Below, in pieces: positions 26,948 to 64,000 of a DNA stretch of 64,000 nucleotides. The notes below the pieces were generated by a model. That model was given only the letters and a program-made list of their open reading frames with translations, made no database searches and was not told the DNA's origin. The stretch is from Herpetosiphon gulosus (lineage in GTDB: Bacteria > Chloroflexota > Chloroflexia > Chloroflexales > Herpetosiphonaceae), in NCBI RefSeq assembly GCF_039545135.1, contig NZ_BAABRU010000004.1:194427-258426 (forward strand), read 5' to 3'. Position numbers and translations under genes: made by a program. Position 1 is the stretch's first letter. Each line of letters opens with the position of its first letter.

Positions 26948-26962
26948 AATTCAACCAATCAG

Positions 26963-29216: not shown

Positions 29217-29230
29217 AAATACCTCGATGC

Positions 29231-29677: not shown

Positions 29678-29687
29678 TATGCTGCTC

Positions 29688-30569: not shown

Positions 30570-30639
30570 TATCGTAGCTCCTTCGCAAGATACGCTAAAA
30601 ATGCTTTGAGAACAGTATTTTTTACCTAGTAACAGTAGA

Positions 30640-33584: not shown

Positions 33585-33609
33585 AGCAATCCTCCGAAAA
33601 CTTGTTGGA

Positions 33610-35685: not shown

Positions 35686-37197
35686 GTGTTTGCTGATTTG
35701 CTGCCTGATGGCACGATCCTTCAAGGACAACACGATCAATATCGGATTCTCGGCATCATCGGGCGCGGGGGCATGGGCGCGGTCTATCGCGGCGAACGCC
35801 TCAGCGATGGCTCAACCTGGGCGGTTAAAGAGATGCGCCCACCAGCCGAGGCCGCTCCCGAGGAAATTGCCGAAAATCGCAAGCTCTTTGACCAAGAAGC
35901 GCAATTATTGCAAACGCTCGATCATCCCAACTTGCCCAAAGTCGTCGATTCATTTGAGCAGGCTGGTCGCCCCACGCTGGTGATGGAATTTGTCCAAGGC
36001 AAAACGCTCGAAGATAAGCAGCGTGAAATGAATGCGCCATTTTTTCAACGTGATGTGCTAAATTGGGGCGTGCAGATTGCGCGGGTGCTCAATTATTTGC
36101 ATAGCCAAAATCCCCCAATTATTTTTCGCGATATGAAGCCGCCGAATGTGATGCTTACGCCTGAAGGCATTATTAAGCTGATCGATTTTGGGGTGGCGCG
36201 AACCTACAAAACCAATAAAAGTAAAGATACAGTGGCCATGGGTTCGGCTGGCTATGCGCCGCCTGAGCAATATGGTAAGGGTCAAACTGATGCGCGAGCC
36301 GATATTTATGCCTTGGGCGCAACCTTGCTGCATATGTTGACCAATCTGCCGCCTGTGCCGCTGCAAACGCCCAAAGATGGCTCGCTGATTAAACATAATC
36401 AATCGGTTACGCCGGAGATGGAGCAGGTGATTATTCGATCGATGGCGATGGATCGCGAGAAGCGCTTTCAGACGATGGCTTCGTTTGAGCAAGCATTGTT
36501 GGCGGTTGATCGCGGGGTGATTGTGCCCGATAAGCGTGATGATCCGACCATGTTGCCCACGCCAGCCCCTGTCTTTAACAATCCGAACCCAAATCCTGCG
36601 CCAGCATGGGGCAATCCCAATCCAAATCCTGCGCCAGCATGGGGTAATCCGAACCCAAATCCTGCGCCAGCATGGGGTAATCCTAATCCGCCACAGTATC
36701 AGCAGCCAATGCCACAACCTGTGCCACAGCCAGCCCCACCATCGTGGGCACCGCCAGTCCAGACCCCAGCGTGGTCGCCACCGCCACAGGCCAATGGCCC
36801 AATTTGTGATCAGTGTGGCCGTATGAATAAACCTAATGCGCGGTTTTGTGCTGGTTGTGGCGCGGCAATCAAACGGGCTGTGCCAAAGCTAGTGATTACC
36901 TCGCCCCGTGCGGTTTGGGAATTGGCATTAACCCACTTTCCTTGCCGCATTGGGCGGCGTGATCCAGCACAAAATCATCATCCTGAGATCGATTTGGCTG
37001 AGCATGATCGAGGCGTGGCCTCGCGTCGCCATGCTGTCATCGAACAACAGGGTGATCATCATTTATTAATTGATTTGGGCAGCATCAATGGCACAAGCAT
37101 CAATGGTGTGCCGATGACTGCCTATCAACCGCACCATCTGCGGCCTGGTGACCGTATTCGGATTGGTGATGTTGAGATGGTTTTTAGTATCGAGTAA
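35686..37197 (+). CDS. Ser/Thr protein kinase with Pro-rich tandem repeats, zinc ribbon and C-terminal FHA domain
   Basis: Kinase motifs (GRGGMGAVYRG, FRDMKPPNVML, DFG, APE). Three NPNPNPAPAWG repeats. CDQCG...CAGCG zinc ribbon. FHA-like end (FPCRIGRR...SRRHAVIE...GSINGTSINGV). Confidence 0.85.
   Translation: MFADLLPDGTILQGQHDQYRILGIIGRGGMGAVYRGERLSDGSTWAVKEMRPPAEAAPEEIAENRKLFDQEAQLLQTLDHPNLPKVVDSFEQAGRPTLVMEFVQGKTLEDKQREMNAPFFQRDVLNWGVQIARVLNYLHSQNPPIIFRDMKPPNVMLTPEGIIKLIDFGVARTYKTNKSKDTVAMGSAGYAPPEQYGKGQTDARADIYALGATLLHMLTNLPPVPLQTPKDGSLIKHNQSVTPEMEQVIIRSMAMDREKRFQTMASFEQALLAVDRGVIVPDKRDDPTMLPTPAPVFNNPNPNPAPAWGNPNPNPAPAWGNPNPNPAPAWGNPNPPQYQQPMPQPVPQPAPPSWAPPVQTPAWSPPPQANGPICDQCGRMNKPNARFCAGCGAAIKRAVPKLVITSPRAVWELALTHFPCRIGRRDPAQNHHPEIDLAEHDRGVASRRHAVIEQQGDHHLLIDLGSINGTSINGVPMTAYQPHHLRPGDRIRIGDVEMVFSIE
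36580..36692 (+). repeat. Three tandem 33-nt repeats (AATCCGAACCCAAATCCTGCGCCAGCATGGGGY) inside the kinase gene, encoding NPNPNPAPAWG x3
   Basis: Near-identical units at 36580, 36613 and 36646, plus a partial fourth. Confidence 0.8.
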
Positions 37198-38138: not shown

Positions 38139-38249
38139 CCCTCACCCCCTAGCCCCCTCTCCCGCATGCGAGGCGAGGGGGAACCATCCCACCATGAAGC
38201 TTGGAACTCCCCTCGCCAACCGCAGTGGGAGAGGGGCTGGGGGTGAGGG
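38139..38249. repeat. Two REP-like units in inverted orientation (38139-38181 and 38209-38249) forming a long imperfect palindrome between convergent genes
   Basis: CCCTCACCCCCTAGCCCCCTCTCCCGCATGCGAGGCGAGGGGG ... CCCCTCGCCAACCGCAGTGGGAGAGGGGCTGGGGGTGAGGG. Confidence 0.6.
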
Positions 38250-45851: not shown

Positions 45852-46161
45852 AACATCCTTTCTTGGGATGATCCAAGAGCTTTACAATTAAACATAAAGG
45901 GTCTGGATGATCGTATTCAATATTGAGGAAATTGCAAAAGACCTGTTAAATTTTTCGCCTAAAAAAGTAGCACTGACCCAATTTCAACAGACTAATGAAG
46001 GTCTGAGAATTGGATCAGCGTTCTATTATTTTTTCTTCAATGATCGCCTGATGTGGATAAATAAGCAGGTTTGCATATCTATTCGGGCAATGGGGAGATG
46101 CAATAATATAGACCGTGTAGCGCCTGCCGACCGTGCCGTCTCCACCGTTCTCGCTATTCCC

Positions 46162-46860
46162 TTATGTGCGCATATGGTTGTTCTGAATTGTTCTTATGCC
46201 CACCCGAATGGATTCACTTAGCATAACTGGTACATTCAGTCCAAACTGTGCTGCACGCAGATGCAAATCATGCAACAACCGACACGCCCGTTCAGCGTCC
46301 ATATGAACGATCTCTTCCCACTGCGCTTGGGTTGGATAGATATCCCAGATGCGTGGTTGAGGCAGGGTTGCTGGATCATGCTGCGTTATGACGACATGGG
46401 CGGCATGATAGGCCACAATACTTCTAAGTGTGGCAATCTCTGCCATAGCGAAACCGTGCCGATAGACACGCAAATACAACTGATGAATAAGGCTATGGGC
46501 GAGCTGCGGCTGAGATACGAGAAGCTGCATCCACTGCGAGCCATCAGGAACGCCATCATGGGGCAACATATTGGATGGAAAGTTCGGGTTGTCACCCATC
46601 TTGCTGGAGAGCTGCTGCGCCTCCGCTTCAATGTGCTCAAGTGTAAAAAACTGGGGAGCTGGAGTCGGCGGCAGGCCTGACCGTGATGATCGTCGCCACC
46701 AAATAAGCAGGATGGTACCGATACTCCCAATCGCCATCCATATGAGTTCCCATGCCATGAATGGTTCCTCCTTGTCATGTCTCAGGTAAAACAGCAATGA
46801 TGCGCTCCAGCACCAAGGCAGGGTTACGTCACCATACGCCCATTGTACATAACTCGCCAC
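46162..46860 (-). CDS. Hypothetical protein (N-terminal TM), tRNA-proximal
   Basis: ORF only. A likely internal start is MAWELIWMAIGSIGTILLIWW. No domain recognised. Confidence 0.35.
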   Translation of the reverse strand: MASYVQWAYGDVTLPWCWSASLLFYLRHDKEEPFMAWELIWMAIGSIGTILLIWWRRSSRSGLPPTPAPQFFTLEHIEAEAQQLSSKMGDNPNFPSNMLPHDGVPDGSQWMQLLVSQPQLAHSLIHQLYLRVYRHGFAMAEIATLRSIVAYHAAHVVITQHDPATLPQPRIWDIYPTQAQWEEIVHMDAERACRLLHDLHLRAAQFGLNVPVMLSESIRVGIRTIQNNHMRT

Positions 46861-46997
46861 AACGATGTAGCTCGGTGGTCGAGTCCCTACGATTCGACCA
46901 CCGAGCTGTCTACTCTGTCCCTAGAGGGTTCTGTGATCCAAGTTAACGTATTATCCACATTTTTGACAAAGCATACCCATACCTTAGATGAAATTAT

Positions 46998-47231
46998 GTG
47001 GCGAAGAAAATTCAAGTCACAGATTTGTCCAAGCGAACAAATATCTCTCAATCTCGAATATCGGCTATCAAAAATAACCCCTATATCAACCGCACAAGCG
47101 ATACAATTGCTCGTTTTTGTGAGGCTTTAGGGATCTCGCTGGCCGATTTTGGCGAGTTAGTTTACCTTGAAGATTCAGCGGAAAATTCAGAATCTAAAAT
47201 AGAACTGGCCCAACTTCAGCAGACTAACTAG
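46998..47231 (+). CDS. XRE-family (Cro/C1-type) HTH transcriptional regulator, GTG start
   Basis: VTDLSKRTNISQSRISAIKNN...TIARFCEALGISLADF helix-turn-helix pattern. Confidence 0.55.
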   Translation: MAKKIQVTDLSKRTNISQSRISAIKNNPYINRTSDTIARFCEALGISLADFGELVYLEDSAENSESKIELAQLQQTN

Positions 47232-47254
47232 TGTCTGATAGTTGGGCCAGTTCT
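47201..47254 (+). terminator. Perfect 15-bp inverted repeat (AGAACTGGCCCAACT / AGTTGGGCCAGTTCT) spanning the stop codon of the XRE gene; terminator-like hairpin without a T-run
   Basis: Arms read directly. The loop is 24 nt and contains the TAG stop. Confidence 0.35.
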
Positions 47255-47553
47255 ATTGCGATATACGCTTTGTGTTTGGCGACCGTCAGCTATATCGCGA
47301 GTGGAGTATCCTCTGTAAACTAACGCACCTTACCAATTGAATCGATAAAGGGGACAAGATTCTTGGCATGCTGAGATCGCTGTAGGAATGGTAGCCATTC
47401 ATGCGACCGCTGCCAGTTGTTCAGATCAGGAATACGGTGGTTACCCCTGATGATGTATTGATACCAAGCGACTGTGTTTGACGCAGTGCTTTTATTTTTT
47501 GTGCTTAATGGACAAACGCCCACATGATTACTCAGATGGACGCTTGTTGGTTG

Positions 47554-47629
47554 TGGCTCCCTGACTAGGACTCGAACCTAGGACATGCTGATTAACAGTC
47601 AACCGCTCTACCAACTGAGCTATCAGGGA
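47554..47629 (-). tRNA. tRNA-Asn (anticodon GTT), CCA encoded
   Basis: Reverse complement folds as a cloverleaf: acceptor TCCCTGA/TCAGGGA, D-arm GCTC-AGTTGGTA-GAGC, anticodon loop CTGTTAA, T-arm CTAGG-TTCGAGT-CCTAG, discriminator G, then CCA. Confidence 0.85.
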
Positions 47630-47650
47630 TTATGCATTTGTAAAAAGAAG

Positions 47651-47695
47651 TGGCTCCCTGACTAGGACTCGAACCTAGGACCCATTGATTAACAG
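47651..47695 (-). repeat. 45-nt duplicate of the tRNA-Asn 3' end (from anticodon loop to CCA, 2-4 mismatches in the variable loop): candidate att site of the integrated element
   Basis: TGGCTCCCTGACTAGGACTCGAACCTAGGAC..TGATTAACAG matches 47554-47598 of the intact tRNA. It lacks the 5' half, so it is not a second gene. Confidence 0.6.
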
Positions 47696-48624
47696 GTTCG
47701 CCTAAAATGCGAAGCAAGCACCCTGTTTCAACAGGCTGCTTTGAAGGAGGTTTGGTATTTGTTTGCTCGCCAGCAACACCACATTGCTGCAATGCACTGT
47801 CGCCCTAACCAGCATTTTCTTAGAGATCGTTAACGTTCTGCTGGAGTAGGATATGGTACGCTGAAGCCTAACTTGACTCGACACATTCGAGCTTACCAAC
47901 AGGACTATTGATAACGGGTGCTTTAGTACATCAATAGTCTTCCCATTGGCTCTAGCATGCGCTCGTTGCTAGAAACCCAATAACAGGTGGTTGATGCTAT
48001 GACACGCCACCTGCTGGATAAGCAGGACAGATGCTATGACACGCTGCTTATCACCACGCTTCATGGGAATTCAGGATCATTGAATCCATGGAGCTTTACC
48101 ATAGGTCGTCTGGGAGTCCTGCTCACCGACTTCTTTATTTACGAACGCCGCTTGCGGCCTTCATAATTCAATGCGCTCCGGCTTTAACCAATTCATAAAA
48201 GATGGCCGTTCGGAGATTGACGGCCATCGCTCGCCATCGACACAATGCAAGGTTACGATGGTTGAGTTTGATATACCCATGACCTTGACTCAGTGTGTTT
48301 CCTGTCTTCCTCACACCTATTGGTGAATGACGGTTGGCTTTGTGTTGCCGCCAATTTGGAACGGTAACCCTCGCCACAGCCCTTTGCCAGTACCAAACGT
48401 GTAGGTTGCTTTGCTATACCCAAAAAATGGCGACCGCCATTGCTGGTTGTGCAAGCACCCCTTAACGCGGTGTGTCTGAAGACCTGTCATGAGATACCCC
48501 TTTAGCACCACCTGCGGGGGTATCCCATCACATACTCTTTCCGCTCCGCGCGGCCTCGAGTCGAGTATCTGCGAACGCACACGCTATCCCAGTGGGATAC
48601 CGCGATAGATCGAGGTCATGATTA

Positions 48625-49488
48625 ATGATTACGCAATGGATCGAAGAATATTTGTCCGCCAAAATCGCCGAACGCCGCAGCCCTGCTACCATCACTACCT
48701 ACCGTATCCGGTTAGGACGGTTTGGTGCTTGGGTCGTTGAACAACCCAATCAGGTGCTCACTCGTGCGTTATTGCGGGCCTACAGTGCGTACTTAGCCCA
48801 ACAAAACATCAGCATTGCCAGTCACTATAGTTATCTCAACGATGCCCTCGTCCTCGTGCGCTGGCTTGCTGAAGAAGGTTATATTCAACCCATTAAGACC
48901 GATAAACTCAAACCCCGATTACCCAAGCGCTTGCCTGCCCACTACACGATGGATCAAATTAAGCGCCTCCTGCTGGTTGCCGAGCTTCGTGAAAAAGCCA
49001 TGCTCTGTGTCTTACTGGATACCGGCGTTCGGGTCAGTGAACTGATTCAACTCCGCCGGACTAGCTTTGACTCGGAAGGCTGCGCCATGATTCTTGGCAA
49101 AGGCAGCAAGGATCGGTATATCTGGATTTCATCCGTGACCCAAGAAGTCCTTCGAACCTACATCGCCAGTCGGACGGATACGAACCCTGCGCTGTTTGTC
49201 AGCCATCGCCAGCAAAAAACGCTGACGATTAGCGGCGTACACCAGAGCTTCGATCGCTTAGCCTCCGACGCGGAGATCCGCAACGATGTGCGGCGTTTGA
49301 TTCACTCCTTTCGTGCCACCTTCGCCCGCGAACTGATCAAGAAAGGCCTTGATGCAGAAAGTCTACGGGTGTTGATGGGCCATGAAACGATTCAAATGTC
49401 TCTGCACTATGCACAACTCTCATCCCATGAGGCGACCCAAAATCGGCAAGGCGTGAACCTCCTCGAGAAGGTGGAGTCATGCTTATAA
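48625..49488 (+). CDS. Tyrosine recombinase/integrase (XerC/D-like)
   Basis: N-terminal SAM-like domain. Catalytic-domain motifs DTGVRVSEL (R), KGSKDR (K), HSFRATFA (HxxR), LMGHETIQMSLHYAQLS (catalytic Y). Confidence 0.85.
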   Translation: MITQWIEEYLSAKIAERRSPATITTYRIRLGRFGAWVVEQPNQVLTRALLRAYSAYLAQQNISIASHYSYLNDALVLVRWLAEEGYIQPIKTDKLKPRLPKRLPAHYTMDQIKRLLLVAELREKAMLCVLLDTGVRVSELIQLRRTSFDSEGCAMILGKGSKDRYIWISSVTQEVLRTYIASRTDTNPALFVSHRQQKTLTISGVHQSFDRLASDAEIRNDVRRLIHSFRATFARELIKKGLDAESLRVLMGHETIQMSLHYAQLSSHEATQNRQGVNLLEKVESCL

Positions 49489-49497
49489 GCCTCCAGT

Positions 49498-50151
49498 ATG
49501 CCCACCTATCCCGGTAGAAACAAGGGAAAAAGTGTACAGAAAGTCAGCACGTTTTTGACAAAAAACGTGCTGATAGGGGGATCTATGCCCATCGATGTTG
49601 GAATTGGTTTGGCCATGGCCACGATGCTGTATGCCGTGGTGCTTGAACGCTACAAGCACTATTTGGAGCCAGATTGGACGTGGATTGAAGTGGTTGTCGG
49701 AACCCTGCTGTGCGTGACTGCCGCAGGGATCGCCATCCGCCTTACGCCGAACGCCAGCTGGCCCCAGTATGAGCACCAGATCATCGCCAGCTTTGGCATT
49801 GGTGGTGGGGTCATTATTACGTGGCAAGTCTGGCGCATGATCAAACGTCGCCAACAAACCCGTGCGGTTGTCTTTGACCTCGTAAATGGCGACCACCAAG
49901 AAAGGGATGTGGATGCCACGGCGACGACTCCGTTGGCCGAACGTGGTGAACGAACATCGACTCGAAGCGCTAGCGAACGCCGCGCAATCGTCGAAGCAAG
50001 CTATCCGAGCCAAAGAGTTGCTCAACCAAGTGGTGCATCAGCGCTATCACTTGAACAATCCCGAAGCCGTCGAACTTATCCTGACCAAGATCGCCCTGCT
50101 GCTCGCAGAGATCGAGGCCAATCAGGAACGAATTCAGCGCCTCTTGATTGA
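49498..50151 (+). CDS. Hypothetical membrane protein (frame uncertain; overlaps alternative ORF 49886-50188)
   Basis: The first third has two hydrophobic helices (GIGLAMATMLYAVVL, VVGTLLCVTAAGIAI). The rest is Arg/Ser-rich. The alternative frame 49886-50188 encodes a helical 100-aa protein and could be an Xis-like factor. I cannot resolve the two from sequence alone. Confidence 0.3.
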   Translation: MPTYPGRNKGKSVQKVSTFLTKNVLIGGSMPIDVGIGLAMATMLYAVVLERYKHYLEPDWTWIEVVVGTLLCVTAAGIAIRLTPNASWPQYEHQIIASFGIGGGVIITWQVWRMIKRRQQTRAVVFDLVNGDHQERDVDATATTPLAERGERTSTRSASERRAIVEASYPSQRVAQPSGASALSLEQSRSRRTYPDQDRPAARRDRGQSGTNSAPLD

Positions 50152-50304
50152 TGCAGCCCACGGCGAAGAGAAAACGCCCGAGTCGTAAAACCCAGTTGCC
50201 CCAATGGCCATGTGCGATTGGGGCAGCATCCTCATTCCTTGCCCTTCGATAGAGATAGTAGTGTGCTGTGGTGAGTATCCTCCCGCAGCACCGAGGATAG
50301 ATCA

Positions 50305-51900
50305 ATGACGACACCGTTATATGCGCAGGTGCGCACTGCTATTCAGCAGTTGCTGGCAGGCCAGACCCTTGACCTGACCCGTGATTGGGGCGAATGGCTA
50401 TCGATGATCCAAAGTTTAGTCTATGCCTTTGAACAGGGCGGCTCGGCTGCCGTCCAAACCGCACTGGAAACCGCGATGCGGGTTGATAGTCGCGTTGCGG
50501 CGCTGGTGGTTGACCCTGCACCACCCACAGCCTTGCGCACCATGCCACCCTTACCGAGTGAATTGAGCAAAGCCATCCGGCAGCACGGCGCATGTGGCCA
50601 CTGGCTCGATACCTATATCGGCTATGCCAGTTATGCCAGTCCGGTCACGCCCGCGATTTTTCATGAAGCGGCAGGCCTCTTTTTGGCGGCGACCGCGATC
50701 GCGCGGCGGCTGTATCTGCAAATTGGCGAAACCTACTACTACCCCAATGTCTATGCGCTATTTGTGGCTCCTCCTGGGCGCTATGCCAAATCGACGGCGA
50801 TGAAGGTCGTCGAGCGGGTATTGCGTCGCGCAGGTCTTGGCCATTTGCTACTACCCGACAAAAGCACGCCCCAGTCGCTGCTCCAGCAGTTTTCGACCGT
50901 CATTCCTGACAAACTGGACAGCTACAGTGATTACGACCGTGAGCAATGGCTACTCGCTCGCGCTCAAGCGGCCCAACGGGCATGGTTGCTTGATGAAGCG
51001 GGATTTCTCTTCAGCGATATGAAGAAAGAGTATATGGCCGAGCTGCTCTCGCTCTTACTCAAGCTGTTTGATAATCCCGAATACTTGGCCCACGAAACCA
51101 TCACCCATGGCCGAACAACCATCCGTGATGCCAGTCTTTCATTCCTTGGCGCAACCACACCGAAAAACATCGAGGAGCATCTGCGCAGCGAAAAGCTGTG
51201 GGATGAAGGCTTATGGAGTCGCTTCGCGATTCTGATTCCTGAGCACGACCCGATTTATGCCGAGTTTCCTGATGAACTCACCATGCCCCCGGCGCTGCTC
51301 GATGGCCTGAAACACCTCGATTTGCTGTTTCCGAAGCCCGACGCTGAACTGGTTGATGACGTACCCGAGGAAAATATCAAGCGCTTTGTGCGGATCTATA
51401 ACGAGCATCCCCCCAGCGCTATCCGCCTCGCGCCCGGGGTCATGAGTCTCTGGAAACGCTATGACAAGGCCGTCCGGTTTGACCTGCCCAATAACGGCTT
51501 ACCCGACACGCTGTATGCCAGCTATGCCCGTTTCCCGGGGCATGTGTTGCGGGTGGCCATGATTCTGGCCGCCATGGATTGCCCTGAGTTACCCGTGATG
51601 ATGCAGCTCGATCACCTCAAACGCGCAATCACGATCGTCGAGCGCTGGCGCAGCGACTTGCATCGGATTTGGAGCGATGGGATTCGGAGTGAAGAAACCA
51701 AGCTGGGAGATAAATTGGTCGGCATGCTCAAAGCCTCGCTCTCGGGCTTGACTGTGCGCGATATCTGCCGCCAAACCAACCAATCCAAAAAAGAGATCAC
51801 CGAAGTCCTTGAAGTCTTACGCCTCGCAGGCCAAATTGACGTGCTGGAGACCAAAGCCGCCAACGGTCGGGTGATGCAACTGTGGAGATATAGCGCATGA
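50305..51900 (+). CDS. Hypothetical replication-associated protein (DUF3987-like; family assignment tentative)
   Basis: 531-aa ORF just upstream of the iterons and the primase gene. No Walker A. Family recall is weak. Confidence 0.45.
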   Translation: MTTPLYAQVRTAIQQLLAGQTLDLTRDWGEWLSMIQSLVYAFEQGGSAAVQTALETAMRVDSRVAALVVDPAPPTALRTMPPLPSELSKAIRQHGACGHWLDTYIGYASYASPVTPAIFHEAAGLFLAATAIARRLYLQIGETYYYPNVYALFVAPPGRYAKSTAMKVVERVLRRAGLGHLLLPDKSTPQSLLQQFSTVIPDKLDSYSDYDREQWLLARAQAAQRAWLLDEAGFLFSDMKKEYMAELLSLLLKLFDNPEYLAHETITHGRTTIRDASLSFLGATTPKNIEEHLRSEKLWDEGLWSRFAILIPEHDPIYAEFPDELTMPPALLDGLKHLDLLFPKPDAELVDDVPEENIKRFVRIYNEHPPSAIRLAPGVMSLWKRYDKAVRFDLPNNGLPDTLYASYARFPGHVLRVAMILAAMDCPELPVMMQLDHLKRAITIVERWRSDLHRIWSDGIRSEETKLGDKLVGMLKASLSGLTVRDICRQTNQSKKEITEVLEVLRLAGQIDVLETKAANGRVMQLWRYSA

Positions 51901-52185
51901 GAAGTGTCATAAGTGTCATGAAGTGTCATAAACGGTTTATGACGCTAAAAACCCACTTGGGGAGCCGCTTCCTTGAGAAGTGTCATAGTGTCATAAGGGG
52001 ACATGTCCAATTTAATAAGGAACATGTACGCGAGACCGATGAGACCACACAAAATCAAAAAATAGCATGACACTTCTGACACTATGACACTTCTCCGTTC
52101 TATCCCATTGGAAAGCCCTAAATCGTTGATTTTGGCTGCATGACACTTCTCTGACACTTCATGACACTTCTCGTGGGAGGGTTCA
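51901..52185. promoter_or_regulatory. Iteron field: at least 10 copies of AAGTGTCAT / ATGACACTT in direct and inverted orientation (candidate origin or primase/initiator binding sites)
   Basis: Direct copies at 51901-51930 and 51977-51996. Inverted copies at 52067-52096 and 52141-52172. Read directly from sequence. Confidence 0.55.
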
Positions 52186-53322
52186 ATGATTGAACATCTT
52201 TCGGGCGATGATTTTCTTTCTTTGGTTGGCCAGCGCACCGCCCTGCGCAAAGTGGCCGCAACCAATGGCGGTGAATGGGCGGGAGCATGCCCTTTGTGTG
52301 GAGGGAAGGATCGCTTTCGGGTGCAACCGCATGGGGATCGTGGTGGCCGCTGGTGGTGTCGCAGTTGTCGCGATGGCCAGCCGTGGGCTTCGGATATTGA
52401 TTTTGTCTTTCTACGCGATCACGGCTTTATCCCCAGTACCGATCATCCAGAGTGGCCTGCGTTGATCAAAGAGGCTTTTGCCACACTGGGGTTGACGATC
52501 GAGCAATCACGACCATCGACGAAGGTCGTCCCTGACCCTGAGCCACCGAATGATTGTGAGCCACCCGCTGCGCTTTGGCAACAAGCCGCCCTGAGTTTTC
52601 TTGGCTACGCGGTTGATATGTTGTGGAAGGATGGGGATAGCCAGCCCTCGCCACGCACCTACTTACACCAGCGTGGCCTGACCGATCATACGCTCCGCGC
52701 TGCCGCGATTGGCTACAACCCCAAACCGCTCTACCGTCCGCTGCACAAGTGGGGACTGACAGACCCGAAGAAAGATGGCGTGTGGTTGCCTGCGGGCTAT
52801 GTGATCCCATGGTTTTGTGATGGGCAGCTCTGGAAGCTCTCGATTCGCCAAACGACCCCGCGCGACGAGGGCATGAAATACGTGACGATTGCTGGCAGCA
52901 GCAATGTGCCCTATGGCATTGATACCTTCCGCGCAGGCCGCCCGGGTATTCTGGTGGAAGGGCCGATTGATGCGTTGGTGGCCCAACAAGCACTTGGCCA
53001 ATTCGAACGCCATGGGCAACCACTCAGCGGGGTTGCGGCGATTGGCACAACCCAAGGGCGCGGCTTTCGTTGGCTCGTCCAATACAGCCTCTGTCAGCCG
53101 CTCTTCATTGCCACCGATGCCGATCAGGCAGGCGATAAGGCCGCTGCCTATTGGCTCGATATCTTCAAAGGCAAAGAGGTTGCCCGCATGCGGCCCGACC
53201 CGCACGATTTTGGCACGATGGCGGTGCAGTGTGGCATGGATTTACGGTCGTGGATTGCCACCCATCTTGATCGCTGGTGGACGGGCGACCTCGCCCCTAG
53301 CCCGATTCAATCAGTTGCCTAA
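52186..53322 (+). CDS. DNA primase, zinc-finger + Toprim type (DnaG-like, element-encoded)
   Basis: CPLCGGKDRFRV...WWCRSC zinc-binding motif. Toprim Glu in ILVEGPIDAL and DxD in FIATDADQAGDKAA. Confidence 0.7.
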   Translation: MIEHLSGDDFLSLVGQRTALRKVAATNGGEWAGACPLCGGKDRFRVQPHGDRGGRWWCRSCRDGQPWASDIDFVFLRDHGFIPSTDHPEWPALIKEAFATLGLTIEQSRPSTKVVPDPEPPNDCEPPAALWQQAALSFLGYAVDMLWKDGDSQPSPRTYLHQRGLTDHTLRAAAIGYNPKPLYRPLHKWGLTDPKKDGVWLPAGYVIPWFCDGQLWKLSIRQTTPRDEGMKYVTIAGSSNVPYGIDTFRAGRPGILVEGPIDALVAQQALGQFERHGQPLSGVAAIGTTQGRGFRWLVQYSLCQPLFIATDADQAGDKAAAYWLDIFKGKEVARMRPDPHDFGTMAVQCGMDLRSWIATHLDRWWTGDLAPSPIQSVA

Positions 53323-53394
53323 GACCTGAATGTTTTCTCCTGATATTTAGCGGCGATGGGTGGGTGTATCCCATCCATCGCCGAGGAGCCTGTT

Positions 53395-54384
53395 ATGACC
53401 ACTCTCGTCCATGGGGCCAATATTGGCCATGGCTATGTCAAATATACGATCAATGCTGGTGATCACGAAGAAACAATTATTTTCCCAGCGCTGGTGGCTC
53501 CCGCCAGTAGCACCGATGGCAATCTGCACGATGTGCCCACCGTGGACGTTCACGGCACACTCTGGTGGACAGGTGATGATGCCCTGTTGCACCCCGCGCC
53601 CTTATCACTCCGCTCGCAACAACGGCTCTACGATCGCCACATTATCCCTGCGCTGGTCAAAGGAGCGTTACAGCGCCTCAAGCAGCCCTGTGGTGGCGCA
53701 TGTGTGACTGGACTCCCTGCGGCCTGGTCCGGCGAACGGGATTTAGCGGTGGCCTTGGGGTCGCGGCTGCGAGATGCGGTTGCAACCCAGTACTATCACG
53801 GCACAACCCTGAAAACGGGCATCCGCGTGATTAGTGAACCGCTTGGCGCGTTGTATGGCGTGTTGCTCGACCCCAGTGGGGCGATTACCACTAGTGGCTA
53901 TGAGATGAGTCGGGTTGGGGTGATTGACTTGGGCCACAACACCGTGGATGCCTGCATTGTCCAAGCGATGAATGTGGTGCCCGAAAGTGCGATTAGCTTC
54001 GAGTTGGGTAGCGCCAGTCCGCTCCAGCAGCTCCAGACCAAGATTAGCGGGCGCTACAACCTTGATCTGACTTTACACGAAGTTGATCACGCGGTGCGGG
54101 CAGGCTATGTACGGGTCGCGGGTGAGGAATGCGATCTGCCAACCGGATGGGATCGCCCATGGCTGGCCAATGGCCAACAGGTCGCGGATGCGCTTGTGCG
54201 AGCGTGGGGCAGCGGCGCGAAACTGGCGGCGATTATTGTGGCGGGTGGTGGTGCAGAAATGCCCATGCTGGTTCAAGCGATTCACCAGCGTTTCCGCCAA
54301 ACGATCGTTGCACCCAACCCACAAACGGCGATCGCCCGTGGCTATGCCCGCCGTGCGCGGCGCTACGAGGAGTTTGGCCAATGA
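53395..54384 (+). CDS. Actin-like ATPase (ParM/StbA family) segregation protein
   Basis: Phosphate-1-like VHGANIGHGYVK and phosphate-2-like GVIDLGHNTVDA motifs. RBS GAGGAG upstream of the ATG at 53395. Confidence 0.55.
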   Translation: MTTLVHGANIGHGYVKYTINAGDHEETIIFPALVAPASSTDGNLHDVPTVDVHGTLWWTGDDALLHPAPLSLRSQQRLYDRHIIPALVKGALQRLKQPCGGACVTGLPAAWSGERDLAVALGSRLRDAVATQYYHGTTLKTGIRVISEPLGALYGVLLDPSGAITTSGYEMSRVGVIDLGHNTVDACIVQAMNVVPESAISFELGSASPLQQLQTKISGRYNLDLTLHEVDHAVRAGYVRVAGEECDLPTGWDRPWLANGQQVADALVRAWGSGAKLAAIIVAGGGAEMPMLVQAIHQRFRQTIVAPNPQTAIARGYARRARRYEEFGQ

Positions 54385-54773
54385 GTTTTGATGAACGCCT
54401 GACGACGCGCAGCTCCGGCGTGCTGAGCGCGATGATTGCCAGTCTCGGCAATGAATCCGCCGTACTTCGCGCCCTTGTGATTATTGGCTTGCACACCTGT
54501 GGCAAAAACATCCAGCTATTCACTGCCGATGCCTTGGCCAGCGTCGCCCGCCTTGATGATCACGCCGTGCGGGACACTTTGCTGGCGGTGCTGATGAAAC
54601 CTGTTGAACAAGCGTTGCACCCACGTTCCCCCAGCGTTGAACCCGTGTTACACGCCAGTACACCATCTGTTGAACACACGTTGCACACCAGTACACCACC
54701 TGTTGAACAAATCCCAGTTCCGCCGCCCACGACGCTCGATCTTCCGCCTGATCCCGAGTACCAAGATGTGTAA
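54381..54773 (+). CDS. Hypothetical protein, translationally coupled to the ParM-like gene (ATGA overlap); possible ParR-like adaptor
   Basis: Start ATG overlaps the upstream stop. Pro/Thr-rich C-terminal tail with repeated PSVE(P/H)xLH. Confidence 0.35.
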   Translation: MSFDERLTTRSSGVLSAMIASLGNESAVLRALVIIGLHTCGKNIQLFTADALASVARLDDHAVRDTLLAVLMKPVEQALHPRSPSVEPVLHASTPSVEHTLHTSTPPVEQIPVPPPTTLDLPPDPEYQDV

Positions 54774-55644
54774 ATGAAAGGGAACTGCTATGACTTCACC
54801 TTCAGCCGTGCTGGCTCGGATTGAAACAATCACGCGTGTTTTGCAGGACGTGGTTCAAGGATTACAGGGAAAGCCCTTCCACTGGGGCGGAGGGCAACGC
54901 GAACACTGGATGCCCTTACTGGCAACCATGGGCTTCCATTTGATCACGAAAACCCAAATCGCCAAACAAGGCTATCGCTTAAAACGGGGGGCGCAGCCTG
55001 TGGGCACAGTCTACTACGACGCACCCTTGCAACGCTATGCCGATGTCTATCTCCGTGAATGCCAGTGTGTCGCGCTTACTGATTCCGCATCGGCAGATGA
55101 TTCGGCGCTTGACCAACAAAAAACCGCCGATGAATAAGCATCGGCGGCGTGCATCACCGGAGAACACCAAAGTGATGCAGCGCTAGTATACCAAAGGAGA
55201 ACACCATGACAACATCGGATGTGTTATTTGATCTGCACCGCCTTGATCCTAGCCGCAAACTCATCAAAGGCCTCGCCTGCACGCTCGGCTGGGGCAATAG
55301 CATTGTTACCACCGTCTCGACCCTGAGCGATTTTCAGCATTGGCTGTGGGGAATTCGTGATTATCGCGGCATCCTCGCGGGGCTGGGGGTCGCGCTGTTT
55401 CTCTTCCTTGGCCAACTCTATACCTTGCGCCGGACTGCGTGGGGCTATGGCTGTTTTCTGGCTCCCGATGCCATGATTACGGCCTATAAATGGTGTGAAT
55501 GGTTGTTTTACCCCATCGCCTACAAACTGGCTTCCGGCCTGCCAGCGCTGGCCCTCGCGTGGGGTGCAGGCTTGGCGCTCGGGGTTGTCTCAGCGCGGTG
55601 GCCCGAATATCTGGCCTTTGGCCGCACTGTACAGGAGCATCCGC

Positions 55645-56757
55645 ATGGATATTAATTCGCCGTGGCTCTATCCGTTGATTTTTCTGTTTGCCTGTAGTTT
55701 TGTTGGCACGTTTCTGTGGTGGCATGCACGCACCCCTACCAGCGAACGCCGCCATGCCGCTGCGCCTACCGCACCCGTGCGTGCGACAAATCCGGCACGG
55801 CCAGTCGTGGTGGAGCGTCCGCGTGGTGAAACCTCACCGGAACCCACGACCACCAGTTTATCAACCTATTCATGGCCCATGCTGCTCGACACCTTGGCCA
55901 AGCGCCCGCATATTGGGATTGCTGGCCCCTCGCGCCAAGGCAAGTCGGTACTGAGTATGGCCCTGACCTATCTTCGCGCCGTCGATGGTCACCAGCTGGT
56001 GATTCTCAACTCACATGCGCGACCGAATGATTACGGCGGCTTGCCACAAATCTATGACTATCCGGCGATCAACCGCGTGATGAAAGCGTTGCTGGCTGAG
56101 CTAGGGCGACGCAAGGCCGCTGCGGCCACAGGCGTGAATCATTTTGATCCGATTACGGTGGTGTTGGAAGAAGCGCCTGATGTCATGAGCAAGGTGCATG
56201 GCGAAGATGGCTCAGCCGCCAAACCTAAAGTGCCTGTTGCGCAGCGCTTTGTGGGCGAAATGCTCCGCCAAGCCGCCAAGTATCGCATGCATCTGATCCT
56301 TGTGACCCAAACCACCTTAGTCAAACCACTGGGCATTGAAGGCGATAGCGAAGCACTCGATAACTTGCTCTGGATTGCGATTGGCGATCGGGCCTTGGAG
56401 AAAATGAAGTCGCCCCTCGTTGCCCCATGGCCTGCGGCGATTGAGTGGAATTGTCAATGGTTTTGGTGCAATCGCGAACCGGCGTGGATGTTATCGACCC
56501 GCCCGATTGACCCAGCACGCCTGTGGCGAGTTCCCGATTCCATGGGAGATCCCGCAGGTGATTCCCCGCTTGGAACCATGGGAACTAGCGATGAGAGCCT
56601 GATTGATGAGGCCACGTTGACCGATGTCATCCTGATTACCAAGCTCATCCTTGCTGGCAAAAGTGGCAACGAAATTATTGACAGCTTGGGTGGCAAACGC
56701 ACGCGCCGTCTCAGCCAAATTCGCCATGTCAAGCAGGTGCTTGATCTTGGCGCTTAA
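55645..56757 (+). CDS. Membrane-anchored P-loop ATPase, FtsK/SpoIIIE/TraB-like (candidate DNA-transfer protein)
   Basis: N-terminal TM (WLYPLIFLFACSFVGTFLWW), Walker A GIAGPSRQGKS, and a hydrophobic Walker-B-like HLILVTQT. RBS AGGAG upstream of the ATG at 55645. Confidence 0.5.
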   Translation: MDINSPWLYPLIFLFACSFVGTFLWWHARTPTSERRHAAAPTAPVRATNPARPVVVERPRGETSPEPTTTSLSTYSWPMLLDTLAKRPHIGIAGPSRQGKSVLSMALTYLRAVDGHQLVILNSHARPNDYGGLPQIYDYPAINRVMKALLAELGRRKAAAATGVNHFDPITVVLEEAPDVMSKVHGEDGSAAKPKVPVAQRFVGEMLRQAAKYRMHLILVTQTTLVKPLGIEGDSEALDNLLWIAIGDRALEKMKSPLVAPWPAAIEWNCQWFWCNREPAWMLSTRPIDPARLWRVPDSMGDPAGDSPLGTMGTSDESLIDEATLTDVILITKLILAGKSGNEIIDSLGGKRTRRLSQIRHVKQVLDLGA

Positions 56758-57554
56758 TACCGAAAGGAATCATTCTTATGACCACGACACCGATGACCAT
56801 TACCTTGACCGAAACCCTTGATCTGCCGAAACACGGCCAGCATACCGTGCAAATCACCGTGACCCCACCGAGCACCGAGCCGCACGATCTCGCTCCCTTG
56901 CTGCAACAGGCGACCATGACCCTCTTTCAGCAACTGGATGCTGCCCTGATTCGTGTTCAGCAGCCACCGCGCTATCTGTGTGGTGCACTGTGTAGCGTGC
57001 TCGTCTGCCCATTTCTTGGGTTGTATCTGCGTGTTCCCCAAAGCACGCCGCTCGAAACCCTGCTGGCGGAAACGGTGATCGATGCCAAGGGCGATGCTCA
57101 CCAGCTCTGGACGGTCGCACTGATGGCCGTTCCGCCAGCGCTTGTCTTGCCGCATATCCCTGTGCTTATTCATGCTTTTTCGATCCAAGGGGCGAAGTCA
57201 TGGCGGGAATATCGCGGCGAAGGTGATACCCTGCTTGCAGAACGCTTGCATGAGTGGCAACACGCTATTCCTGAACCAGTACGAACCGATGAACACTGGC
57301 TTAGTGGACTTTAATTGAGTATTCGAGGCCGTGGCTGCTACATTAAGCAAGCCACGGCCATTTGGTGATCAGGATGCTTGCGGCATTCTTGCCCATTCAT
57401 ATCGTGTTCAAACCGTGTTCATATCGCGTTCAGATGGTCTACAAATCGCCAAGTAAAAAATAGCGCACTAGAATCGCCTAAATTGGCTATTTGGTCGTGC
57501 CGACATTCTTTAACAGGCTGCACAGCCACCAATTATCGTGTGAGGAGTGATTGA

Positions 57555-58490
57555 ATGACAACCCATACCTCCGTTGGCCTTAATCCCACTGAGCTGCACA
57601 TCCTGCTGCTCGTTGCTCGGCTTGGTCGCTTGCTGTCACGCCACCTGCGCACCGCGTGGGGCCATCCGTTTACCGTGACGATTCAGACCGTCAATCGCAC
57701 GTTGGCCAAGCTGGTTGATGCCAAGCTGCTGATCTATTGCGAACACTTTCAATCGCATGGCTATGATCCGCGTGGTGCGATCGGGTGGACACGCCATGGC
57801 CGCTTATATAGTCTCACGCCCCTTGGCTGGGAGATCGTCAAACAGGCCTTTCCCATGCTGGAGGAAGGCAGTGAGCGGCTGGCTCCCACGATGTTTAATC
57901 CCCAACATCAAGCCGAACACCAAATTGAGTATGCCGAGTTCATCACCAGCTTGATTCAGTCGCTACCGTATGTGCCTGGTATTGTCGGCATGAGTAGTTA
58001 TATTGAGATGGACTTAGGCCCAACCGCACGGCCACGCGCTGATGGCATTGTTGTGGTGCGGCGCTGGGCCGATGCGACGCAGCCCGATTCTGAGCGCTCG
58101 TCGTTGTATCCATGGCTTGGGATTGGCCAACAGCAAGGGCAAATTGATCAACTGTATGCGATTGAAATCGATCGGGGAACCGAGGAGTTGAGTATTATTA
58201 CGGGGAAAGCCCATTCGTATGGGGAATTATATCGATCGAAGTATTGGGAAGGGCGCTATAGCTGGCCTTTAATTGCCTTTACCGTGCCGAGCGAACGCCG
58301 CAAACGGGCCGTGCTTGATGCGTGGGAAATCGGCTGGCCCGGCAGCCAGCTGCTCATTGCGACCATCGACGATGTGCGTGAGTCGGGTATTCTCACGCCG
58401 ATATGGACGACCCAGTACACCAAGCAAGGCCAACGGATTCAGCAATCGCATCGGTTTTTGCGAGCTGCTTGGTTTGAAAAGGTTATATGA
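57555..58490 (+). CDS. Hypothetical wHTH protein (possibly replication-relaxation family)
   Basis: N-terminal segment LHILLLVARLGRLLSRHLRTAW...VNRTLAKLVDAKLL resembles a winged helix. Family assignment is weak. Confidence 0.35.
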   Translation: MTTHTSVGLNPTELHILLLVARLGRLLSRHLRTAWGHPFTVTIQTVNRTLAKLVDAKLLIYCEHFQSHGYDPRGAIGWTRHGRLYSLTPLGWEIVKQAFPMLEEGSERLAPTMFNPQHQAEHQIEYAEFITSLIQSLPYVPGIVGMSSYIEMDLGPTARPRADGIVVVRRWADATQPDSERSSLYPWLGIGQQQGQIDQLYAIEIDRGTEELSIITGKAHSYGELYRSKYWEGRYSWPLIAFTVPSERRKRAVLDAWEIGWPGSQLLIATIDDVRESGILTPIWTTQYTKQGQRIQQSHRFLRAAWFEKVI

Positions 58491-58519
58491 TTCAATAATC
58501 ATTTAAAATAAATTACATT

Positions 58520-59521
58520 TCATAAATATTCATCTATATCTATAATTATATTTTTATTTTTCTTCATATATAATTTGAATTCATCAATAAAATTTTCAGT
58601 GGCAAAAATAAGAGTTAATATATCGTTTTTATTTATTTCTATATCAATGAATGCCTCGTGAACTATTTTATGTCTTATTGTTATATATTTAGCTATTACT
58701 TTTTTGATATTTATTTCTTTTTTATTGAATATTTTGTTTACATTAAGTATTTTCTCTATATCTATCTCAATTTCATTAAATGCGCTTATTATTTTTGGAA
58801 TATTTTGAAATGATGTTAATCTTGCATATTCATCTCCAATTGTTACCTTTTTTGTATACATATTCTTGAAGCTATGTAAATCTAATTTTTTTAATATATT
58901 CTTCTGAATAGACTCTTGGTTATTGACATAAATTACAAAGAAATTTTTTAGAAACTCTTCTATTGAAGATACTATGTAAGGAATGATTAGATTATTTATA
59001 ATAATACCTTTATCAAATCTTAACATCCATGGTAAATTCTCTTTTTTATAATTAAATTCATCAATATCATCTTGAACAGCTATTTTTGATGTAATTATAT
59101 TATTTATGAAATTTCTATAGACTATAGAGCATCCGCGTTCAATAACAGTAAATTCTGGTATTTCATAATAAAGATATGAACACACTCCTTCTTGAGGATT
59201 ATATAGACTTCCTAGAAAAGCTTTTTTTAATTGTTTAATTACATTATTTTGTGCCTCCAGATCTGCAAAAGAACGTCCAGCATTTGAATAGGCATGAAAA
59301 ACTACTTTTGTATCCTTGGGAACATTTTCAACCGGATTATAGTCAATAAATAGCCAACATCCACGGGTAGACTCATAATTATTCTCATTGAACCAGTAAT
59401 AACTTAGACCTTTGTAACCAGAATAATAGGTTGCTTTTTTCCATCCTAATGGAAATATAATTTTTTCAATTTGCCGACGAGTAGGCTGATTTTTAGTTCT
59501 AAGAAATAAATCAATACTCAT
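58520..59521 (-). CDS. AT-rich hypothetical protein (333 aa) with C-terminal Rx4H (HEPN-like) motif
   Basis: About 25% GC. C-terminal ...AKYITIRHKIVHEAF... contains R-x4-H. No other recognised domain. Confidence 0.5.
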   Translation of the reverse strand: MSIDLFLRTKNQPTRRQIEKIIFPLGWKKATYYSGYKGLSYYWFNENNYESTRGCWLFIDYNPVENVPKDTKVVFHAYSNAGRSFADLEAQNNVIKQLKKAFLGSLYNPQEGVCSYLYYEIPEFTVIERGCSIVYRNFINNIITSKIAVQDDIDEFNYKKENLPWMLRFDKGIIINNLIIPYIVSSIEEFLKNFFVIYVNNQESIQKNILKKLDLHSFKNMYTKKVTIGDEYARLTSFQNIPKIISAFNEIEIDIEKILNVNKIFNKKEINIKKVIAKYITIRHKIVHEAFIDIEINKNDILTLIFATENFIDEFKLYMKKNKNIIIDIDEYL

Positions 59522-59600
59522 TACTTGCTCCTAGAATCTGGAATTAATGATTTAGGTTCTTTCTGATAATCCATGCTAGACTATCCGACAGGAGGTACGC

Positions 59601-60135
59601 ATGGCTCTCCATGAATTGACCAATACCCAATTTGCCGTGATTGCACCGATCCTACCGACCGAAACCTGCCGTGGCCGCCCATGGAATGACCACCAATGCG
59701 TGGTTAATGGCCTATTTTGGCAACGCAATACCATGATTCTATGATGCGATATTTCCGACCGCTTTGTACTCTGGTAACACGGCGGAACCTGGGAATGCAT
59801 CCTTACCTCCTTGCATATGTCCTTAAATGCCATGGATGCCTCGAGTGGCAGTAATTGACCATCGATGGCATGCTTATTTGCGTCGGTCGTACCGTTGCGG
59901 CGCATGAAAAAAATCTTTGATGACACATGAATCCACTAACCAAACCCTCGGATGTTTCTACGGCAGATTCGGTACCAAATCCACCTCCTTTAGTTTAGAT
60001 GGTCGTGTACATCCGTTATCCTCCTGTCTTACGCCTAGACAGATCCACGAAGGCACCGCGTTCGAAACCCTGATCGTTATGCTCCAGCAGCACGGACAAC
60101 CCGGCACCCGTCCACACTCATTGGTTGATGATTGA
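59601..60135 (+). pseudogene. Degraded IS5-family (IS427/IS1031-like) transposase remnant, multiple frameshifts/stops
   Basis: MALHELTNTQFAVIAPILPTETCRGRPWNDHQCVVNGLFWQ matches the conserved N-terminus of IS5-family transposases (L..EQW..IEPLLP...GRPR.D.R.VLNGI). Downstream fragments lie in other frames. Confidence 0.6.
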
Positions 60136-60791
60136 GGCGATGATGACCGTTGTATCAGACAGTGGACTCAGCAATATGGGATTCGGTCGGTGATTCTGCC
60201 ACGCCGACGACGCGGTGAATGCAAGGCTGTCCGTCCAGTTTCTATGGCTAACAGGCTTGCCATGCCCGCACTGTGGTTGAGCCCGCCAATGGCGGGCGCA
60301 AGGAGTGTCGGTTGGTTGAGAAGAGAAACTGGCTCTGAATTATCTTGTATTGATGCATCTAGCCATGATTCAACGATTGGTTCGTATCATTGTACCGTTC
60401 ATATAGCCATCCTGAATTATAAGGCCTACGGTAATATGCTATTAAAGTAAAGGTGCTGTTTTTGATCATTTTCGTGGTATTCTGAATCTTTCCAATGGAA
60501 GCTTAAGGAATTAAATTATCAAACAAAATATATTCTCCAGCCTCTTCCTACTGTCAATGTGTTGTGATTAACTGGAGTCAGTGTGCCTTTAGAATCCATT
60601 ACTGCCAATACATCCCATGATATCCAAACGTATCTGGATACAAGATCACTATCAAAATGAGGATAACAGTACTTATCAGAACTTACTTTATACGTTTTAA
60701 TTTAACTATTTAACTAGTTGGCTTGACATACCTGATAGGATATAGCAACTAGAATTACACCTTAATCTTATAAAAACATCATAACATTTCT

Positions 60792-62846: not shown

Positions 62847-63069
62847 TTTAGTGAATTATTTATCTTCTATTCCAAGCCCTTGATAATTACAGTGATCAAG
62901 GGCTTCCTTAACTATATGTAGGTTCTATTTGATCATTCAAGATATCGCATACCGTCGCAAAACCTCATTGATATGCTGATTGGGACGGTATTCTTGGTCA
63001 TTTTCTCATGTACATTATGGTATTTGTGCCTTCCCAAGTCCCAAGGGAGGCTTAAGGATTTATCAGTAT

Positions 63070-63975
63070 CTAAATCAATGAGTGACTATTTGCCATTACC
63101 ATCTCCAATAACGGCAGCGGCTCCTCGGGCACGAGCTGCACTGCTGCCAGATTGAAGCCATCCACTTGGACTTCGGCCAAGACAAAGCCATTCAGGCGAT
63201 TGGCCACCGCGCTACTGGTGGGCAGCACATCGCGGAACAGCAGCATGTCCCCCGGTCGCGCTTCCGTCGCTGGATAGACCATGCCATCCACGGTCTCCAG
63301 TACCGCACATGTCAGGCTGGCCGCAGCTTCGCCTTTGGCCGCGTCACTCAGAAACACACTGGTTCGTTGCGTGGCCACGGCGAGCGTCCCGCCGTCAACG
63401 GGCAGCGCCGTGCGCCGAACCAATCCGCTATTGGCCAGCGCTTGGGCATCGGTTTGGATGGGCGTGCGCTGGCGTTGGCCCTGCTCATCCTCATAGACCC
63501 CATAGCCACTCGTCCAGCGTCCATCGCTATTGCCGCCTTGGGTATAGCTGCATTGCTCGGTACTGACATACCACACCCGCCCCGACTGGCGCGGACGCAC
63601 GAACAGCACGCCATCCTCATCAACACCCCAGACCCATGGACGGTTGCTGGTATCCCCCAGCTGCACCTGCTCGCTCAGGATGGTGGCCCACGGCTGATCG
63701 TCCGCTGCAAGATTCGCAATATCGACGAGCGGACTTTGCACTTTGCCATCGCTGTTGAAGACTGCCCATGGATTGACCGCCAATACCTCACTCAAGGCAT
63801 ACTTGGCCACTTGATCGAGTGTCACGGTTGGCGTGGTGACGGCTTTGACCCGCACGTTAGTGATCACCAACTCAATATCGCCATCATTGCCATCCCACAG
63901 CGGCTCCACCAGATCGCTGCCAAGGTGGGCATTGCGAAACACGGCGGTAAAGGTCGTCGCGGTCGTGGCCGTCAC
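63070..63975 (-). CDS. Hypothetical protein (301 aa) of the integrated element; possibly a structural protein
   Basis: GTG start with a GGAGGA RBS. The sequence is Thr/Val/Gly-rich and resembles beta-rich phage structural proteins, but I found no diagnostic motif. Confidence 0.4.
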   Translation of the reverse strand: MTATTATTFTAVFRNAHLGSDLVEPLWDGNDGDIELVITNVRVKAVTTPTVTLDQVAKYALSEVLAVNPWAVFNSDGKVQSPLVDIANLAADDQPWATILSEQVQLGDTSNRPWVWGVDEDGVLFVRPRQSGRVWYVSTEQCSYTQGGNSDGRWTSGYGVYEDEQGQRQRTPIQTDAQALANSGLVRRTALPVDGGTLAVATQRTSVFLSDAAKGEAAASLTCAVLETVDGMVYPATEARPGDMLLFRDVLPTSSAVANRLNGFVLAEVQVDGFNLAAVQLVPEEPLPLLEMVMANSHSLI

Positions 63976-64000
63976 GACGACTTCCTCCGGCTCCGCGCCG

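Follow-up and report, generated by a model that had tools for sequence, protein, structure and literature searches.

What happened beside a tRNA-Asn gene of Herpetosiphon gulosus, where a truncated second copy of a tRNA-Asn gene and a tyrosine integrase gene follow one another? The question arises in a stretch of 64,000 nt (contig NZ_BAABRU010000004.1, positions 194,427 to 258,426, forward strand; hereafter the window); an initial annotation had read the arrangement as the footprint of site-specific integration into a tRNA 3′ end. Our analysis indicates that the window very probably holds one attachment (att) junction, attR, of a temperate tailed phage inserted in the first of two tandem tRNA-Asn genes, which we call alpha and beta. 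This is a standard tRNA-integrated prophage, and the known working of such elements is unchanged by it. The parts of the proposed junction, in window coordinates, are as follows.

47496 to 47695, no strand assigned: full att repeat block, comprising the 3′ part of alpha, the spacer, the whole of beta and about 58 nt of terminator-like hairpin; duplicated at the far prophage end in relatives
47554 to 47629, minus strand: intact tRNA-Asn(GTT), the beta paralogue (ARAGORN; Rfam tRNA, 68.6 bits)
47630 to 47650, no strand assigned: spacer of 21 nt separating the tandem tRNA genes (about 20 nt at loci L012, L019, L011, L016 and L018 too)
47651 to 47695, minus strand: displaced 3′ fragment of tRNA-Asn alpha, positions 32-76, the proposed attR core (45/45 match to alpha)
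47696 to 48624, no strand assigned: phage arm of 929 nt, free of open reading frames (ORFs), hairpin-rich, with two ATGACAC motifs (compared across four copies)
48625 to 49488, plus strand: tyrosine integrase of 287 aa, XerC/D/XerA-like (Pfam PF00589, 7e-25)

The tRNA-Asn genes, the fragment and the integrase

The initial annotation described an intact tRNA-Asn, a 21-nt gap and a 45-nt 3′ copy whose mismatches were confined to the variable loop. The arrangement is as described, but the placing of the mismatches is not: the four differences between the fragment and beta fall at tRNA positions 42, 43, 44 and 45, so that the anticodon stem (its 3′ strand) and the variable region each have two. 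As a direct repeat the two copies extend over 46 nt (47553-47598 and 47650-47695, 91% identity, 97 nt spacing), and the 31-mer TGGCTCCCTGACTAGGACTCGAACCTAGGAC has exactly two occurrences in the window, against none in 100 shuffles. Beta is the sole tRNA that ARAGORN and Rfam call in the window, and no second att copy was found within it with up to three mismatches allowed.

The fragment had been taken for a duplicate of the neighbouring tRNA, and this has to be revised. It matches beta at 41 of 45 positions and the alpha gene of five loci in related genomes (L011, L012, L016, L018 and L019, introduced below) at all 45, with the identity running from C32, at the start of the anticodon loop, through the CCA and one further base. 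The fragment is what remains of a distinct paralogue, alpha, and no duplicate of the adjacent gene. Beta, identical to the second tRNA at all Herpetosiphon loci, is the downstream member of the native pair, and integration did not target it. The anticodon stem of alpha is AATTG/TCAAT against GGTTGA/TCAGC in beta (H. giganteus and strain NSE202); the differences at 27/43 and 28/42 are mutually compensatory, so both genes fold as tRNAs.

Two other identities for these pieces were considered and set aside. The fragment as the 3′ exon of an intron-split tRNA would need a 5′ half to its right, and none was found there, nor was any match to a group I intron or other Rfam family. A Y RNA-like (YrlA) match at 47574-47706, with 35 bits where the gathering score is 69, spans both tRNA-like pieces and was treated as an artefact.

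The tyrosine integrase that had been placed within 1 kb is there: its ORF starts 929 nt from the fragment, and its Phage_integrase domain scores 88 bits against a Pfam cut-off of 27.1. Its best relatives in the PDB are XerC-like 4a8e, XerA 5hxy and XerD 1a0p. The catalytic set is complete (R136, K162, H227, R230, H253 and Y262, the R-K-H-R-H/W-Y signature of the tyrosine recombinase superfamily), and the motifs GVRVSE, GKGSKDR, HSFRAT, MGHET and LHY align with those of 4a8e. Pfam finds only a SAM-like core-binding domain (residues 6-85) and the catalytic domain (109-266). The enzyme lacks the extra N-terminal arm-binding domain of lambda-type heterobivalent integrases, and its length and alignment fit XerA and XerD. 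It shares 98% identity with a protein from H. aurantiacus DSM 785, and the contigs that encode that protein carry the EamA gene, tRNA-Asn, fragment and integrase in the same order as the window.

More distant members of the clade are found in three contigs of uncultured phages (L020, L021 and L022), whose integrases are 41-44% identical (tblastn). Like the window element, they have a 45-nt tRNA 3′ fragment that begins at C32 and lies on the strand opposite the integrase gene. Unlike it, their fragment is from tRNA-Lys(CTT), directly follows the integrase stop codon and is not accompanied by a second tRNA. As these fragments also start at C32, the clade uses the anticodon-loop sublocation, class ‘A’ of the Islander database.

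Occupied and empty sites in related genomes

We scanned one genome per species with the 31-mer. Two loci each were found in H. aurantiacus DSM 785 (L018, far junction; L017, near junction), H. geysericola (L011, far; L015, near) and H. llansteffanensis (L016, far; L013, near), and one each in H. giganteus (L019), strain NSE202 (L012) and a Chloroflexia metagenome-assembled genome (L014). At each single locus ARAGORN calls two complete tRNA-Asn genes in tandem, separated by about 20 nt, which agrees with the earlier proposal that the target was a tandem tRNA-Asn copy. Alpha precedes beta in every Herpetosiphon genome examined; the pair in the metagenome-assembled genome is uninterrupted with both copies of beta type. 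Among the single loci, flanks were compared for H. giganteus and NSE202. The genomes with two loci have complete alpha and beta genes at one and the 45-nt fragment with beta at the other, in the same orientation (ARAGORN).

The H. giganteus locus matches different junctions on its two sides: its left half aligns with those at the far end (L018 and L016), and the part to the right, beginning at C32 of alpha, with those at the near end (L017 and L013). The NSE202 locus behaves likewise, matching L018 on its left and L017 on its right. Both hold neither fragment nor phage DNA and have outer flanks that match both junctions, which gives the uninterrupted target with the same flanks that Islander looks for. 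The initial annotation had named as contrary evidence the same arrangement in genomes lacking the integrase and cargo; the genomes without the integrase carry two intact tRNAs and no 45-nt fragment.

At the occupied sites the distance from C32 to C32 is 41,890 bp in DSM 785 (CP000875 738067-779957), 39,949 bp in H. geysericola and 49,406 bp in H. llansteffanensis. What the fragment lacks of alpha, its 5′ part, sits 40-49 kb away, fused to the opposite end of the same phage, and in all four prophage copies, including that of the window, phage DNA abuts the fragment, with identity from C32. In Islander’s terms, three genomes have a full alpha at one end and alpha 32-76 at the other, 39.9-49.4 kb apart, with an identity block whose start at C32 is the anticodon-centred sublocation; of the two ends, the window shows the one with the fragment. 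The far-side repeat that the initial annotation had proposed to look for was sought in relatives, and was found in DSM 785, H. geysericola and H. llansteffanensis. The claim that the other junction lies beyond the window holds for these genomes, and for the window’s own genome we infer it from the repeat 39.9-49.4 kb away in the relatives; that far junction should lie about 43 kb to the right. The element does lie to the right, as had been supposed: window 47696-58478 and 63098-64000 are collinear with the DSM 785 prophage at 88-97% identity.

The repeat itself is longer than the 45 nt first given. In relatives it extends over 145-200 nt and includes the whole adjacent tRNA: 200 nt at 96.5% identity in DSM 785 (L018 2067-2266 against L017 3957-4155), 145 nt in H. 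geysericola (L011 against L015) and 191 nt in H. llansteffanensis (L016 against L013). The H. geysericola block stops at the end of beta, and the other two run on into the terminator-like hairpin. The phage ends at L011, L016 and L018 thus each contain a complete beta-type tRNA-Asn(GTT). The beta at the far junction (attL) belongs to the element: the sequence following it is of one type in all three species, whereas after the near-junction beta H. llansteffanensis matches the empty site of H. giganteus.

These observations fit the following picture. The native unit would be tRNA-Asn alpha, a spacer of about 20 nt, tRNA-Asn beta and a terminator, and as the spacer is too short for a promoter the two genes are probably one transcription unit. 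The XerC/D-like integrase would recombine the attP of the phage with alpha through the sequence shared from C32, with the exact crossover point presumably inside the 45 nt. The attP would hold the last 45 nt of alpha, the spacer and a complete beta-type tRNA-Asn, with the terminator in two of three genomes. Integration would then rebuild the whole two-tRNA unit behind the host promoter at the far junction, attL, and displace the 3′ fragment of the host alpha, together with the host beta, to the junction seen in the window. Insertion in alpha would otherwise orphan beta, and the phage-borne beta would keep the supply of tRNA-Asn intact.

The prophage, its gene content and its history

To the right of the integrase gene the window holds the following features of the element.

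50305 to 51900, plus strand: DUF3987 protein, like the helicase part of primase-helicases, of the replication module (PF13148, 5e-22; PHROGs ‘DNA primase’)
51904 to 52167, no strand assigned: array of (A)AGTGTCAT / ATGACACTT iterons, nine in all, forming two inverted groups (also covered by inverted repeats I4 and I10)
52186 to 53322, plus strand: zinc-ribbon/Toprim DNA primase (Pfam PF08273, PF13155; PHROGs DNA primase)
53356 to 54384, plus strand: actin-like (ParM/ALP) partition protein (Pfam ALP_N, MreB-like_C; PHROG 691 ‘partition protein’, 4e-24)
57555 to 58490, plus strand: Replication-relaxation family protein (PF13814, 9e-9)
58478 to 63098, no strand assigned: strain-specific cargo of 27-39% GC, replacing 2.8 kb of the DSM 785 prophage
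58520 to 59521, minus strand: RiboL-PSP HEPN protein in the cargo (Pfam)
63098 to 64000, minus strand: 3′ part of a gene that in DSM 785 encodes 588 aa (91% identical to L027 13465-14367)

A provirus of 34.3 kb in IMG/VR ends at this integrase, and the window is collinear with it except at 58478-63098. It encodes an amidase endolysin, large terminase, SPP1-type portal, scaffold protein, tail tube, an 1139-aa tape-measure-like protein and a major capsid protein (PHROG 267, 1e-78). The set expected of Caudoviricetes (terminase, portal, capsid, tail and lysis) is present in the DSM 785 prophage (L032), and the window shows the edge of the tail region only: the gene at 63098-64000 lies in that region, adjoining the tape-measure-like gene in the order of L027 and L032, and the prophage continues past the window end. 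As the collinear provirus carries terminase, portal, capsid, tail and endolysin genes, the element is a tailed temperate phage of about 42-44 kb, and the window holds its first 16.3 kb.

Read on its own, the window from 48.6 to 58.5 kb would also suit an integrated plasmid or a mobilisable or conjugative element, as it shows an integrase, primase/helicase, ParM-like and replication-relaxation genes, and Pfam and PHROGs recognise no capsid or tail family anywhere in the window. We regard this as highly improbable, given the terminase, portal, capsid, tail tube, tape-measure-like and endolysin genes of the collinear DSM 785 element and the match of window 63098-64000 to its tail region; in addition, neither a relaxase of a known MOB type nor a type IV secretion gene was seen, and there was no match to a PLSDB plasmid. 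That the 45-nt copy is a decayed pseudo-tRNA duplicate of a local array, with an integrase nearby by coincidence, is hardly credible. The locus is natively tandem and slippage or deletion could in principle leave a truncated third copy, but the empty sites carry exactly two intact genes without a fragment, the fragment begins exactly at C32 with phage DNA abutting it in four genomes, and the 5′ part of alpha is found 40-49 kb off, joined to the other end of the same phage.

The junction may be real and the prophage nonetheless a fixed, defective relic, inherited vertically from a common ancestor of several Herpetosiphon species, lost in other species and unable to excise. The presence of the prophage at the same site in four genomes is consistent with this, as is the failure to recognise an excisionase or to find an attP-containing sequence, and PHAST reported a 16.2-kb ‘incomplete prophage’ in H. 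llansteffanensis (PMC6210107), which may be this element. We nevertheless consider a relic unlikely. Between genomes, identity across the element exceeds that of the flanking chromosome by 10-14 percentage points (96.6, 92.0 and 88.0% against 86.3, 78.0 and 76.6% for the EamA flank), and the region from att core through integrase is a mosaic between lineages, H. geysericola having an aurantiacus-like integrase with a llansteffanensis-like arm. Both suggest recent horizontal spread and not an old fixed relic. The cargo varies by strain, what follows the phage-borne beta is unlike the native sequence in two species, and the catalytic residues of the integrase and the full structural gene set are intact, all of which speaks for such spread as well. 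The phage can probably still excise.

Some points weigh against a temperate phage inserted in alpha, as we propose it. The attL of the window’s genome is deduced from close relatives and not seen. The integrase adjoins the displaced fragment and not the rebuilt tRNA, and lies 929 nt from the core, both of which are less common. No excisionase was recognised. The two junctions do not differ within the 45 nt of alpha, which leaves nothing by which to map the crossover. Neither an attP nor a free-phage sequence turned up, and a junction scan of JGI metagenomes gave 0 hits, in a collection without samples known to carry the junction. Concerning the excisionase, the small ORFs of the 929-nt spacer were tried as candidates and rejected: neither their length nor their frame is kept in the four copies, and they have no Pfam hit.

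Related proviruses are seen through the Replication-relaxation gene, which has 81-91% nucleotide identity in four other Herpetosiphon-type IMG/VR proviruses. One contig (L028, IMGVR_UViG_2508501111_000003, 78.8 kb) is a second provirus contig in the IMG genome that holds the DSM 785-type provirus (L026/L027), and its copy of the gene has about 85% nucleotide identity to that of the window; related proviruses in three other IMG genomes (L029-L031) have 82%. This integrase is absent from the stretch fetched for L028-L031. The 49.4-kb prophage of H. llansteffanensis carries a second tyrosine integrase of 340 aa near its far end (L016 6632-7654), which could mark a nested or tandem element.

Within the cargo, a 684-aa protein has no family match and contains 33-nt tandem repeats at 62454-62552, and a perfect 22-nt inverted repeat lies at 62827-62875. 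The PADLOC defence-system models gave no hits to 58478-63098. The iteron array, whose units read AAGTGTCAT / ATGACACTT, sits between the DUF3987 and primase genes. It contains 9 of the 14 ATGACAC matches in the window and is a putative origin or operator.

Known systems and other features of the window

The Islander database counts 2083 class ‘A’ (anticodon-centred) islands (PMC4383910). The Herpetosiphon element is like these in its split target, the restoring sequence carried on the element, the restored gene and direct-orientation fragment at its ends, its internal tyrosine integrase, and an identity block running from the anticodon loop to the tRNA 3′ end. It is unlike them in that the block extends through a second complete tRNA, and in two of three genomes into the terminator, and in that the integrase is beside the displaced fragment, 929 nt from the core.

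Mycobacteriophages with tRNA-dependent lysogeny integrate in a host tRNA gene and carry a complete tRNA of the same isotype (PMC10865867). The phage tRNA can offset the disturbance; with a shared core of only some 10 bp, integration does not restore the host tRNA (Guerrero-Bustamante and Hatfull 2024, PMC10865867). The Herpetosiphon phage likewise carries a complete tRNA-Asn(GTT), but it shares 45 nt within the tRNA and alpha is intact at attL (ARAGORN). As the target tRNA is rebuilt, this is not tRNA-dependent lysogeny of the published kind (PMC10865867).

We found no published description of this phage or of its att site, and no nucleotide match among deposited phage genomes, where the best integrase identity was about 31%. 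A parallel in logic may be HP1 of Haemophilus influenzae, which inserts in a tRNA-Leu gene (Hauser and Scocca 1992, cited in PMC12540744). The HP1 attP reportedly shares about 180 bp with the host, a stretch that would consist of the 3′ part of the target tRNA and a neighbouring tRNA of the cluster, so that integration rebuilds the whole cluster. The same rebuild logic is what we propose for the Herpetosiphon phage. The two differ in host phylum, target tRNA and integrase lineage: the HP1 integrase (1aih) is a weak match (E 8e-5), and it is heterobivalent and binds arm sites, whereas the Herpetosiphon enzyme is short and XerC/D-like.

For Herpetosiphon, a genus of filamentous predators in the Chloroflexota, the analysis defines to the base the attachment site, the integrase and the size of a temperate phage, and gives a clear case in which a phage carries a whole extra tRNA gene and a two-gene tRNA unit is rebuilt at integration. 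We know of no genetic tools for the genus, and the integrase with attP could give a single-copy integration vector for it.

The 929-nt arm between att core and integrase is most likely an att arm together with the control region of the integrase gene. It has no ORF conserved across the four copies, and its indels are not multiples of three. That it encodes a large structured phage RNA of an undescribed family is quite unlikely, but the idea has some basis: the two strands fold with z-scores of -3.85 and -3.39, there are 7 compensatory pairs against about 2.5 in column shuffles, and large ornate RNAs of prophages occur in a comparable setting, next to tRNA genes. This reading is weakened because the strands score alike, the identity is as at third codon positions and there are no further homologues for covariation. 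Both strands fold alike with the same compensatory-pair count, giving no strand preference for a putative RNA, and the mean identity between lineages is 88%, close to that at the third codon positions of the integrase (82-90%). There was no Rfam match for the arm, only a chance 19-mer hit in a search of IMG/VR for distant copies, no similar arm in contigs with 53%-identical integrases, and no match in INPHARED phages or PLSDB plasmids. The roughly 250 nt of the arm adjoining the integrase gene are almost invariant in the four prophages, one hairpin loop of the arm switches from AGT to TTCG between lineages, and its ATGACAC motifs are at 47999 and 48036.

On the other side of the junction the window has an insert with these features.

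46021 to 47494, no strand assigned: insert of 1.47 kb absent from DSM 785, homologous to the attL-proximal prophage end (boundaries from alignment)
46998 to 47231, plus strand: Cro/C1-type helix-turn-helix (HTH) gene in the insert (84.5% protein identity to the L011 and L016 copies)
47320 to 47523, minus strand: ORF of 67 aa in the insert

Window 46983-47695 aligns at 85-86% with L016 3701-2990 and L011 2949-2238, and the spacer between the tRNA genes in the window matches the one that the H. llansteffanensis phage carries. In DSM 785 (L018) the counterpart of the HTH gene is 56% identical to the window copy and belongs to Pfam HTH_26. Most simply, the phage had lysogenised this site before, and the insert is probably what was left behind. 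None of the loci fetched has a homologue of the 232-aa ORF inside it (46162-46860, minus strand).

Further to the left of the tRNA junction, the stretches 10000-14000 and 26000-35000 have a GC content of 37-45% against about 51% elsewhere, and may be other acquired regions. A GC-rich palindromic repeat of about 40 nt (CCCCTCGCC...GAGAGGGG...GGGGGTGAGGG) occurs at 21146-21186, 26907-26947 and 38209-38249, in intergenic positions and in both orientations, and its copies look like an interspersed repeat of the REP (repetitive extragenic palindromic) type. Three tandem 33-nt repeats, AATCC[GC]AA[CT]CCAAATCCTGCGCCAGCATGGGG[CT], lie at 36580-36689, with a related 19-mer at 26262.

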